A stretch of DNA of 63,349 nucleotides, the filler included, from Candidatus Woesearchaeota archaeon (lineage in GTDB: Archaea > Nanobdellota > Nanobdellia > Woesearchaeales > BM511), in the NCBI GenBank assembly GCA_023266675.1. It is 8 parts of 8 records of this genome, joined end to end, with 100 filler letters (N's around TTAATTAATTAA, not from the genome) between each part and the next. Parts side by side here need not be neighbours in the genome. Positions count along the whole stretch, not along the records: positions 33,556 to 36,462 come from JAHFPP010000081.1; positions 36,563 to 39,425 come from JAHFPP010000082.1; 6 more parts are not named here. One strand, given 5' to 3'. Made by a program: the position numbers. Of the stretch, positions 36,001-39,000 are shown piece after piece (position 1 is the first letter of the stretch; the number at the start of each line of letters is the position of its first letter).

Positions 36001-39000
36001 TCTCCAAGTTGGTTTTTAAAATATTTTTTACTGTCAGCTGCAAGTTTTTTTACTTTTGGAGGAACAGCGACTCCGACAATTCTTAATTTTGATCTTTCTT
36101 GTCTGTAAATAATATATTCCTTCGCGGATTTTACATACTCACCAAGAATAAGTTCCTTCTCAACAATATCCTGAATACCTTCAACGTCTGGCATAAAATC
36201 CTTGAATTTCTTGGCTATTCTGACAAGTTCGGCTAAAACCTTATTAGCAACAAGCTCGGCTTCTTCAATAGAACCTTCGCTACAAACACTCATGGCTTTG
36301 TTTATAGCATTAGTAATTTTCGTTAAATCAAAAGGTACAATCTGACCATCCCTCTTCTTAATACTTCGGATAAGATGTGCTCTTCCGTGTCCTGTTTTTA
36401 CCATGTTTATAAAATTACTAACTAATAAATTTGTAATGATAATTTTACACCTAAAATAATTANNNNNNNNNNNNNNNNNNNNNNNNNNNNNNNNNNNNNN
36501 NNNNNNTTAATTAATTAANNNNNNNNNNNNNNNNNNNNNNNNNNNNNNNNNNNNNNNNNNNNCGGACATTTCCGCTAGGGCTACTCGCGCCTAGATGTCT
36601 AGGTTTCCTGCTTATCCTCGCCATTCCCGCTCTGCGGAGCGGTGGCGAGGGCAGGAGACTGTTTGGGGGAAGGAAGGAATCCTTCCCCCAGCTTCGCCTC
36701 GTCTCGGCAGGGCTCGACCAACCGGCTCAGCCAACCCCCATCCTCGTTTTCATATCGGCTGTATGTGGTGTCGCTTCCGCTTCGGATTTCTGTATTGCAA
36801 GATAACGGCGGCGCTCATCCTTTAGTCATGGACGCCCTAGCGGAAATGTCCGAGGCTCAAATGCAAATGCGCTTGACCCACCCTCCCGTTCGCGCGCAAG
36901 CGAACATTCTCCCTTCATTATTATTTTTAGTCGGAAGATTATTTTCTGGTTTTCTTTACTTTATTTCTATCTTTTGTGACCTTTAATACTTGTTTTTTAA
37001 TACCATCGTTGCTAATAATTTCTAGTGCCTTTTTGAAATAGTTGTTCCTGTTTTTTGTTTTTTTGGATGTATCCTTTTTCGGATTTCTTCTGATTGGTTT
37101 TATGTTATTTAGCAACTGTTTTTGAGTCTTCTTTATTTGTTTACGTTTTAATTTTTGAATTGTATTTTTTCTTAACAAAATATTTCTTCCACTAAATTCA
37201 AGTCCGAGATAATCAACATAGTCACGACTTTTTCGTTCACCAAGACCGTCTGTAACTTTTTCGCATACCAAGTTTTCATTTACTTTTTTAAAATAGGTTA
37301 TAAAAGATTTGCTAGCGTTAATTCTAAGTTTAGATTCCTTAATCTTACTTTCAATAAATAATAGTAAACTCTCTTTTTGTTCGTCTCTACAAACAAAAAC
37401 TAGGTCATCGCTGTATCTTCTATAAAAGACGTCTGGAAAAGATGTATTTATTTCAAAATCAAAATCTATTAAGTATATATTTGCCAACAATCCACTAACA
37501 GGGCTTCCTTGAGGTATTGCTATATTTGTCCTGTTCTCATGGACAAGTCCTTTTAAAGTATTGTAAATTGCATACTTATTATTTTTTGTTTTCCTTTTTA
37601 TTTTCTTACCAAGAAAATCAGAATGCTCGATATATCTGTGAGCTGTTAATGATCTGAATACTTTATAAAAAGACTCATCAAGCTTTTCTGTATTATTAAC
37701 TTTACAAATCTTTTTCTTTAATAAACTATGGTTTAGATTATCAAAGAAGCCTTCAATGTCTTGAGTTATGACAACACATTCACCTTGCTTTTGTATGTGG
37801 TCAAAAACTTCTTGTGCAAAATGAATATTGCTTTTACCTTTGTTAGTTTCTTCAATTTTAATTTTTCTATAAGCAGTCACATTTCTACTAAGATTTAAAT
37901 TCTCTAGGTATTTCTCATATTTTTCTTGAAGAATAAAATTATAGTAACTATAAATATGGGCATCTATGTGGGACGCGTACATTATCGGTCTTAATTTTAT
38001 TGACCTACGCACTTCACCTTCTTTGTTTTTGCGAAAACGAATTTTAACCTCTTCTCTTTTTATGAAAGGTAAAAATTGATGATTCTTTATATCTTCAATA
38101 ACCTTGACTACTCTTTGAAAGGTTTCCTCGTTATCTAAATCAAGAGCATCATCAATATGCTGATATGTTCTCAGTTTCCTGTCTGGTTTTATTTGGTTTT
38201 TCCACTCTTGATATGTCATATAAAACGCAAAGACCTCTTCCTACAAACCGTTGACATGGTTCGATACTTGGAAGAGGTCATTCAACTATGTGTTGGCTTG
38301 TATTATGTGGTCTCGCTTATTTCTAAGCTAAGGTCAACTAAAAACGTGTGTATAATAATTATAAGTCTAATCAATTGCTATAAGCAACAAATTATGATTC
38401 CATTCCTATACAATGTGCTGTTCAACCTGATGGTCAAACATTCTTACGACTGCTTAAGTGCTGTTGCCAGACTCTTGCAAATCGTTGATAACACCGGGAC
38501 TAGCTCATCTGGGAAGAGATAACGGTCAATACAAGCAGAGACCGTTCATGTAGTTGCCCACAATGCCTACTTCTTAAAAGCTAGTAACTAAACACTAGCA
38601 TAAATATGAAAAATTATCAATCTATATTTTATAGCTTTTATTTACAAACGACATAATGTAAATATTCTAAAGTTTTATTTGAACTAAAGTCTCGATTCTC
38701 GTCTTTGTCTGCTTTAAATCTGTTATATTCTTGAGTAAAATATCCATACTTACCTCGTGAACCCATTATTTCTTTTATATCATCGAGTGTCATGAGGCCT
38801 TCATTATTGTAGCTTAAGAAAATATATTTTTGTTTAGCATTTGATATTAAATCACTAAAAGATTTTTTAACTTTTGTTCGAGAGCAATATAAAGATTTCT
38901 GACTCTCGTATTCTCTCAGCCCTGTTTTTCCGTGAATTTTTGGGTCATCATATTTTGCAATAGTTTCAAGTAAATGATAATTTGTCGCGTACTGTCTTTG

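Follow-up and report, generated by a model that had tools for sequence, protein, structure and literature searches.

A conserved, G+C-rich structured element beside a DRT2 reverse transcriptase as a probable RNA module of Patescibacteria islands

Large ornate bacterial RNAs such as ROOL and GOLLD, both of which are Rfam families, are carried on prophages and other mobile DNA and often lie near tRNA genes. The phiC31, Bxb1, A118 and SCCmec-type elements are prophages and integrative islands that are driven by large serine recombinases. In the Patescibacteria, we know of almost no non-coding RNAs that have been described beyond the universal ones. Among the defence reverse transcriptases (RTs), the DRT2 system of Klebsiella pneumoniae has a 280-nt ncRNA upstream of an RT of 425 aa, according to the published account (PMC12039810).

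In the present study, a structured element was analyzed at the start of contig C15 (JAHFPP010000082.1, positions 36563–39425) of an assembly labelled Candidatus Woesearchaeota archaeon (GCA_023266675.1). All the coordinates refer to the window, which is the whole stretch of DNA that was analyzed (63,349 nt, filler included). Our overall reading, to which we give a probability of about 0.7, is that the element is a truncated RNA module of a Patescibacteria island, that the neighboring genes are interchangeable cargo, and that C15 is mis-binned. A literature search, conducted mainly at the level of abstracts, found no description of the RNA or of the island layout.

Structure and conservation of the element

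The region from 36563 to 36907 has a G+C content of 58.6%, compared to 30.4% in the rest of C15 and 34.3% genome-wide. The preliminary description was thus right that the element is G+C-rich, and its figure of 56% is replaced by the measured value. When folded as RNA, the + strand has a minimum free energy of −160.7 kcal mol−1 (z = −7.2 against shuffles) and the − strand one of −158.0 kcal mol−1 (z = −5.3), which bears out the earlier statement that the element is structured far better than shuffled sequences. The absence of an Rfam family is likewise upheld: the element matched no Rfam 15 family at E ≤ 10, and no match was obtained in the whole block of seven relatives, in 131 kb of which only tRNAs reached the gathering score.

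The closing stem P1 consists of 19 bp between 36563–36581 and 36834–36852, as reported previously; the element, however, is not a complete unit. The closing stem of the relatives is 23 bp long, and their conserved non-coding sequence extends about 280 nt farther to the left, beyond what is here the first position of the contig, and the element is therefore truncated by the contig start. On the right, conservation ends at a sharp CTCCCT boundary located at 36909–36914, past the previously given end of 36907. The best explanation is that 36563–36914 represents the 3′ four-fifths of a conserved, G+C-rich, structured non-coding RNA module. The domain that is closed by the stem measures about 290 or 360 nt, the module including its leader and 3′ hairpins about 0.45–0.5 kb, and the module may be transcribed within a block of at least 0.7 kb.

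All the parts of the module are given on the + strand. The 5′ arm of P1 (36563–36581) is cut by the contig start, where the relatives have four additional paired bases. The 5′ side of P2 (36587–36591) pairs with 36810–36814; it does not vary in most copies, and L113, one of the relatives, has one compensatory change. Compensatory changes are mainly found in the long hairpin H3 (36602–36660), whose apex is C(UGCG)G. Hairpin H4 (36665–36689) has a purine-rich 5′ arm that resembles a Shine-Dalgarno sequence and a 3′ arm that reads CCUUCCCCC; an A-U pair of H4 is replaced by G-C in 7 of 20 copies. The variable region (36697–36731) has a length of 35 nt in C15; in copies of the long size class it is about 108 nt long and houses an extra hairpin domain. 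It is followed by a nearly invariant pyrimidine-rich stretch, CAACCCCC.UCCUCGUUUUCA (36732–36752), which is predicted to be mostly unpaired. The 3′ arm of P1 (36834–36852) continues into AGGC (to 36856), whose partner in the relatives, GCCT, is missing here. The 3′ extension, module D (36853–36914), forms two hairpins; it lacks the last G+C-rich hairpin found in the relatives and retains the terminal CTCCCT, at which conservation ends and the cargo starts. A candidate pseudoknot would form between the CUCCCU tail and purine-rich loops in the 3′ hairpins.

A 19-mer from the stem was found in 99 stretches of the genome_contigs collection, and the relatives are 70–97% identical across element positions 1–339. 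The 45 copies that could be delimited from stem to stem have lengths of 193–405 nt (273–405 nt without the outlier L058) and fall into two size classes, and the sequences of P1 and P2 are almost invariant across 44 copies. For 20 copies, the 65 consensus pairs were paired in 93.6% of cases, compared to 87.0% in shuffles, and double changes occurred in 21 of the 65 pairs, compared to 10.4 ± 1.4 in shuffles (none of 500 reached 21) and 5–12 in controls with slid partners. The earlier claim of a conserved family with compensatory changes is thus confirmed on a larger set of pairs, and the covariation supports a folded single strand. Insertions and deletions whose lengths are not multiples of three (163) far outnumber those that are (35). 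These data support a real, uncatalogued, conserved, structured and non-coding element of Patescibacteria origin, which, if the RNA is functional, would add a large structured RNA class to this group.

The preliminary description placed the element in many Patescibacteria, once per genome. Its relatives are indeed numerous, but the distribution is sporadic, since, of 400 other Patescibacteria genomes sampled, only 5 were found by BLAST to have the element; a single copy was seen in four of the five genomes tested, while the fifth carries pieces on four contigs. Copies are 94–97% identical between MAGs labelled Saccharibacteria, Paceibacterota and Yanofskybacteria. Such extreme conservation of the stems across candidate phyla points to recent horizontal spread and to a target that is common to all the hosts. 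Three words of the element gave 0, 0 and 1 matches in IMG/VR viral contigs; the sole match (L002) was rejected as a viral copy, being a chance match within a high-G+C coding region.

Island context, cargo and the origin of C15

The position of the element in its relatives is best explained if it is a module of small mobile or integrative islands of Patescibacteria. In 19 loci with long flanks, housekeeping genes lie to the left of the element and variable cargo to the right, including restriction-modification (RM), ThsB, CBASS, other RTs and metabolic genes. The first tRNA gene encountered rightward is on the minus strand in all 14 loci that show one, and recombinases of the Resolvase, Recombinase and Zn-ribbon (Zn_ribbon_recom) composition overlap a tRNA gene in L037, L039, L044 and L113. 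The islands of these four relatives thus have a recombinase at one end, and the insertion site is the 3′ end of a tRNA gene. In 15 of 27 loci, an inverted-repeat partner that is 94–100% identical was found 3–9.8 kb to the right, L004 being an exception with a 71-nt copy at 90%. A displaced tRNA 3′ fragment was sought at the left junction, where the only possible match was one of 9 nt in L044, and neither an empty site nor a circular junction of these islands was found. The window and the bin contain no serine recombinase, which is known here from the relatives.

In the resulting arrangement, the gene of a large serine recombinase adjoins a tRNA gene and defines one end of the island. Variable cargo follows between near-identical inverted repeats of 100–250 bp, and the RNA module sits just inside the recombinase-distal repeat. 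The DRT2 RT and the methylase are taken as no more than the cargo of this copy, and C15 would be a bacterial island fragment that was broken at the repeat and wrongly binned into an archaeal MAG. Islands with the same cargo and the same repeat but without the stem-closed domain exist, and the module is optional for the layout. Where present, it would mark a very widespread and apparently undescribed family of small, defence-carrying Patescibacteria islands.

The cargo of C15 is encoded on the minus strand. The RT of 426 aa (36939–38219) matches the PADLOC model Drt2 at 1.1e-106, in agreement with the earlier assignment to DRT2. Upstream of the RT, a gene-free stretch of 418 nt (38220–38637), with a fold z of −3.7, is conserved together with the RT in the relatives and is a candidate for the DRT2 ncRNA. 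It is followed by a gene for a D12-class N6-adenine DNA methyltransferase (38638–39426), which is cut by the contig end. A group II intron RNA was also considered and rejected, because the RT is of the DRT2 type (PADLOC, 1e-106) and no intron family was matched at E ≤ 10.

C15 is probably mis-binned bacterial DNA from Patescibacteria. The preliminary description left the choice between a mis-binned piece and an inter-domain transfer, of which we adopt the former and weigh the latter as an alternative below. The Nomurabacteria contig said to be 83% identical was not re-found; the relatives of C15 are metagenome contigs that are 84–90% identical over 1.6–1.9 kb and 77% identical over 2.7 kb. L113, a contig of 276 kb, carries the same cargo at a DNA identity of 77%, flanked by an NAD-dependent ligase and a bacterial-type PheRS. 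Short contigs that bear the module are repeatedly mis-binned, and their genes should not be taken as archaeal or proteobacterial defence genes.

Strand, possible functions and alternative explanations

The element probably acts as RNA, transcribed from the + strand. In the alignment read on this strand, G·U cells exceed A·C cells by 80 to 15, where 55 of the 80 stem from three conserved helix-end pairs. The loops CUUCGG, CUGCGG and CGCAAG occur 65, 37 and 20 times, compared to 1, 2 and 2 occurrences of their complements; read on the minus strand, a conserved site would give a GAAA or GGAA loop (51 occurrences). Metatranscriptome contigs from four runs in three studies extend over −460 to +360 of the block, and one contig of 124 nt is an exact match with a word depth of 143 in a library of 255 Mb. 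These contigs could in principle be DNA carry-over. As such contigs run across −112 to +25 and −161 to +44, a promoter of its own may not be the point at which the unit starts. A promoter scan reports promoter-like sites to the left of the stem on the minus strand only, whereas a possible TTCAAT-N16/17-TAnnnT site was seen by eye on the + strand. Coverage in the RNA libraries stops at position 10360 of L018, a place that is specific to the host of L018, and this stop is therefore uninformative.

We infer that the module serves the island rather than the cargo. Our first choice, which is tentative, is an accessory RNA that acts on a component common to the hosts, which could be the translation apparatus or a host factor that binds RNA. 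This choice is based on the facts that the stems and one single-stranded motif are invariant, that the recombinase-side repeat diverges, and that the module is optional. The second choice, which is doubtful, is that the module controls the expression of the recombinase or the inversion of the cassette. It is unlikely, though conceivable, that the module represents a new large RNA class that works with the serine-recombinase island, for example as a cofactor or switch for cassette inversion or exchange, or for replication or transfer of the excised form; such a link, if true, would be the first of a structured RNA to a large serine recombinase system. Duplex energies for an antisense interaction with the start of the recombinase gene were no better than those with other gene starts (z = +0.4 to +2.2) in a crude test with n = 3, where six of the nine scored loci had no recombinase-size ORF by the rule used. 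A guide RNA was rejected, as the longest match between a block and its own tRNA is 8–9 nt, no better than matches to the tRNAs of other loci; identical H3 variants accompany different tRNA targets.

The preliminary description treated the RNA as a feature beside the DRT2 RT, a framing that is not supported by the comparison of loci, where the RT appears as just one of many interchangeable cargoes. The distance between the element and the RT stop codon is 32 nt, and structured ncRNAs are used by DRT systems (PMC12039810), but it is very improbable that the element is the template or scaffold ncRNA of the adjacent RT. None of the 99 element loci has a close match to the RT or the methylase (there are two weak RT matches only, at 24–27% identity), the same RT (89–91% aa identity) occurs without the stem-closed domain in 4 of 12 metagenome contigs (L102, L105, L106 and L107), and other cargoes occupy its place in other loci. 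The element is also located 3′ of the RT, whereas the DRT2 ncRNA in that account is upstream, as is the candidate at 38220–38637(−). The fallback that the element is a very divergent housekeeping RNA of Patescibacteria (SRP or 6S) has in its favor a long closing stem with branches and a small SRP model that matched in none of the five carrier genomes, which leaves SRP RNA undetected rather than excluded. It is nevertheless contradicted by the sporadic rather than lineage-wide spread, the genome with pieces on four contigs, the near identity across MAGs of differing candidate-phylum labels, and the constant location at the edge of a variable island, and we regard it as scarcely credible; RNase P RNA is located elsewhere in all five carrier genomes. 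That C15 truly belongs to the archaeon, which would have acquired the island, whole or in part, by a recent inter-domain transfer, is improbable. Marker genes put the completeness of the bin at 95.9% and its contamination at 0.9%, and the cargo G+C of 30% is near the 34% of the genome; however, bacterial island hosts have an equally low G+C (35% for L113), and binning by composition therefore cannot separate bacterial from archaeal pieces. In addition, among 300 other genomes of the archaeal phylum, none has the element and none the RT, the bin has no recombinase and no overlapping contig ends, and seven other element contigs of at most 8.6 kb were assigned to bins labelled Gammaproteobacteria, Omnitrophota, Synergistaceae, Bacteroidales and Oligoflexales.

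Two further alternatives accept the island context and differ in what the element does. It could act at the DNA level as a site at which the island recombines, replicates or is transferred, by means of single-stranded hairpins (as in integron attC, single-strand origins or oriT) or of invariant protein-binding arms, in which case the RNA signal would be read-through or DNA carry-over. The near-invariant P1 and P2 could equally be recognized as DNA sequence, the element adjoins the inverted repeat that marks the variable segment, both strands fold well, covariation does not separate RNA from single-stranded DNA, and the RNA-library contigs carry no strand information. We nevertheless find this quite unlikely. 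UNCG-type loops, which are a hallmark of RNA hairpins, are strongly one-sided (CUUCGG and CUGCGG, 102 against 3), a word depth of 143–184 in libraries of about 250 Mb is hard to explain by DNA of a rare organism, and the islands that share cargo and repeat without the domain count against it as well. The element could instead be a 3′ structure for cargo transcripts, either a bidirectional terminator or insulator, which would keep cargo transcription out of the host genes, or an RNA-stabilizing end. Its hairpins are very stable. In 13 of 18 loci inspected by eye, the neighboring cargo gene lies on the opposite strand and points toward the element, and the same is true of C15, where the RT stop is at 36939. 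This function is decidedly improbable, since no terminator-like site (a hairpin with a T-run) was found in the element or block of the window or of L018, the single such site of L038 is no more than in shuffles, and the loop motifs favor the + strand. A terminator would also need far less than about 450 nt that contain invariant unpaired motifs and a covarying multi-branch fold. An RNA module of the island thus remains the preferred reading.

Comparison with known systems

The element and the K. pneumoniae DRT2 ncRNA are alike in that a structured RNA adjoins a DRT2-type RT of the same size; however, the element lies 3′ of the gene rather than upstream of it and shows no co-occurrence with the RT. 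The IS110 bridge RNA and the omega/reRNA of IscB/TnpB are likewise structured RNAs encoded where a mobile element ends, and they show a sharp transition from conserved scaffold to variable DNA, but the present islands have no IS110, IscB or TnpB gene.

As judged by description, ROOL and GOLLD have in common with the element that they are large, multi-branched, covarying and apparently abundant RNAs with a G+C content far above that of their surroundings, on mobile DNA beside tRNA genes. The element differs from them in that it matches no Rfam 15 model, is smaller (about 0.3–0.5 kb), has Patescibacteria as hosts, and occupies a fixed place within a serine-recombinase island. The island itself resembles the phiC31, Bxb1, A118 and SCCmec-type elements, as the relatives encode a large serine recombinase at a tRNA gene, beside variable cargo. 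It is distinguished from these by the inverted repeats of 100–250 bp that bracket the cargo and by the structured RNA that lies inside one of them.

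Composition, fold and family of the element

The contig C15 occupies positions 36563-39426 between N spacers on both sides, and its first 345 bases have a G+C content of 58.6%, compared with 30.4% in the remainder of the contig and 34.3% in the genome. The predicted RNA fold reaches −160.7 kcal mol−1 (z −7.2) on the plus strand and −158.0 kcal mol−1 (z −5.3) on the minus strand, and the closing stem pairs 36563-36581 with 36834-36852 over 19 bp with no mismatch. An Rfam 15 search of the element at E ≤ 10 gave no match. These values bear out the preliminary description of a GC-rich folded element that has a 19-bp stem and no Rfam family.

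In the relatives, the closing stem is 23 bp long, with an extra GCCT and AGGC relative to C15, and conserved non-coding hairpin-rich sequence extends about 280 nt leftward of it; the C15 copy is truncated at the left. To the right of the stem, conservation continues for about 95 nt and ends abruptly at GCTCCCT, beyond which all loci differ. In the C15 copy, the final GC-rich hairpin of this 3′ extension is missing, and CTCCCT is retained at 36909-36914. In 35 of 72 loci, no more than 500 nt separates the element from a contig end, usually the left one, which fits assembly breaking at an inverted repeat.

Exact matches to the closing-stem 19-mer number 99 in the genome collection, nearly all in Patescibacteria-labelled MAGs of numerous candidate phyla. 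An exact 19-mer in L041, a 438-kb Tepidanaerobacteraceae-labelled contig with no further similarity to the element, is probably a chance match. BLAST homology to element positions 1-339 amounts to 70-97% identity (97% for the Saccharibacteria-labelled contig L045, 95% for the Yanofskybacteria-labelled L076 and 94% for the Paceibacterota-labelled L018). The 45 extracted stem-to-stem copies measure 193-405 nt, or 273-405 nt once the outlier L058, kept out of the alignments, is set aside; they fall into a short class of about 290 nt and a long class of about 362 nt, the latter with an extra hairpin domain inserted between element positions 134 and 170.

Covariation was analyzed in 20 short-class copies, using the RNAalifold consensus structure with the inner stems of hairpin H3 added. 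Over 65 pairs, 93.6% were paired, compared with 87.0% after shuffling, and none of 500 shuffles attained the observed value. The covariation claimed earlier is confirmed, as 21 pairs changed on both sides; the shuffles gave 10.4 ± 1.4, and sliding the partners by 1-3 columns gave 5-12. Most compensatory events fall in H3 (36602-36660), whose stem has at least three haplotypes, and in hairpin H4. The closing stem and the next helix, P2, are almost invariant; the most divergent copy, on the contig L113, has three compensatory pairs in them. Because 163 indels in the aligned copies are not multiples of three and 35 are, the region is non-coding.

Purine runs resembling Shine-Dalgarno sequences (GGAGGA, GAGGAG) and pyrimidine runs of the anti-SD type (CCUCC, CUCCCU) appear repeatedly at 36665-36689 and 36732-36752 and in the relatives' 3′ hairpin loops (for example L018:10340-10390), and UCCUCG is found in the leader, H3 and the invariant unpaired stretch. 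A loop AGGGA and a tail UCCCU could pair as a pseudoknot.

Island layout and origin of C15

Long flanks are available for 19 loci. Their left flank holds housekeeping genes (FtsZ, thioredoxin reductase, RuvA, S20 and MurG among them), and the right flank holds unrelated cargo (including RM systems, a ThsB TIR protein, CBASS, two other RT kinds, copper oxidase genes, lipid genes and two-component systems). In 15 of the 27 sufficiently flanked loci, an inverted copy of 100-250 bp from the sequence left of the element is present 3-9.8 kb rightward, at 94-100% identity except in L004 (a 71-nt copy at 90%). Wherever a recombinase is visible, this rightward copy lies directly upstream of its gene. 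A large serine recombinase, its 3′ end overlapping a tRNA gene, stands at the island end in L037, L039, L044 and L113, and each of the 14 loci with a tRNA to the right of the element encodes that tRNA on the minus strand, with six amino-acid identities represented. From these placements, the island order is host genes, inverted repeat, RNA module, cargo, inverted repeat, recombinase and tRNA. A literature search found no description of the RNA module or of this layout.

In L018, a tRNA-Arg (10397-10468) and a CBASS and RM set (10535-16420) lie between the inverted repeats, the partner repeat being at +6293 to +6419; therefore, the variable segment can include a tRNA gene. In L064 and L107, a tRNA-Ala (−414 to −339 and 427-502, respectively) lies directly left of the repeat region with no recombinase in view, and these loci may be rearranged or decayed island forms.

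L113 comes from a 276-kb contig with 35% G+C and contains a whole island, sharing the methylase, ncRNA region, RT and element with C15 at 77% DNA identity; a NAD-dependent DNA ligase and a bacterial-type PheRS are the neighbours of this island. Among 300 further genomes of the archaeal phylum, neither the element nor the C15-type RT was found. In the bin that holds C15, no serine recombinase and no contig overlapping the C15 ends were found. The simplest reading is that C15 is mis-binned bacterial DNA, and the bacterial island of L113 and the absence from the 300 archaeal genomes favour the mis-binned CPR piece, one of the two origins proposed previously.

Seven other short element-bearing contigs of 2.8-8.6 kb (L014, L019, L023, L026, L051, L075 and L079) sit in bins of unrelated phyla, labelled Gammaproteobacteria, Omnitrophota, Synergistaceae, Bacteroidales and Oligoflexales, which looks like recurrent mis-binning of island fragments.

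Strand, expression and possible function

When the plus strand is read, G·U cells outnumber A·C cells by 80 to 15 (three conserved helix-end pairs account for 55 of the 80). The loop words CUUCGG, CUGCGG and CGCAAG, which favour this strand, occur 65, 37 and 20 times, and their complements 1, 2 and 2 times. Two observations count against it: a conserved site reads as a GAAA/GGAA loop on the minus strand (51 occurrences), probably the G(G/A)AA tetraloop reported earlier, and a promoter scan left of the stem gave promoter-like sites on the minus strand only. On balance, the RNA is rather likely to be encoded on the plus strand.

Of the words sampled from the element, 28-50% are present in six RNA-recorded runs. 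Three studies supplied four metatranscriptome runs, and their contigs, aligned with L018, extend over −460 to +360 relative to the stem start; some of them span −112 to +25 and −161 to +44, and one 255-Mb metatranscriptome library has an exact 124-nt contig match with a word depth of 143. These contigs, which carry no strand, ends or DNA control, hint at an abundant RNA and at transcription through the leader into the domain.

A housekeeping RNA was considered and rejected. Among 400 other Patescibacteria genomes, sampled evenly, the element has matches in only 5, and just 2 of these are substantial; RNase P RNA lies at another site in all five carrier genomes, and one genome has element pieces spread over four contigs. 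The statement of one copy per genome fails in that genome. In C15's 83-contig bin, the element occurs once. The small SRP model had no match in five carrier genomes, in agreement with the earlier search, and the sporadic distribution rules out an SRP identity.

Among 12 metagenome contigs with a related RT (65-91% identity), the domain is present beside it in six (L103, L104, L108, L109, L110 and L113) and absent in L102, L105, L106 and L107 despite RTs 89-91% identical; in these four, the left-hand repeat region abuts the cargo directly. The module, which extends from about −77 to CTCCCT, is therefore an optional unit. The stems and the pyrimidine-rich motif (36732-36752) are invariant, and the repeat region diverges between islands. 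For these reasons, an accessory RNA with a target common to all hosts ranks first among the possible roles, at a probability of about 35%. Control of the recombinase or of inversion is a less likely role, and a site acting at the DNA level is improbable. None of the tests of function indicated a mechanism: no tRNA-specific complementarity of the block was found, H3 variants do not track the tRNA target, and no pairing signal was seen between the block and recombinase starts (n = 3).

Relation to the DRT2 system

The element ends near a DRT2 reverse transcriptase (36939-38219, minus strand; PADLOC Drt2, 1.1e-106), and a D12-class adenine methylase (38638-39300, minus strand) is open to the contig end. 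A link between the element and this RT is not upheld, since none of the 99 element-bearing loci has a close relative of the RT, or of the methylase, and four of the 12 RT contigs lack the domain. Directly upstream of the RT, a 418-nt gene-free structured stretch (38220-38637, minus strand; fold z −3.7) is conserved along with the RT in metagenome relatives. The published DRT2 account places a 280-nt ncRNA upstream of a 425-aa RT (PMC12039810), and the 38220-38637 stretch is the likely DRT2 ncRNA of the C15 system.
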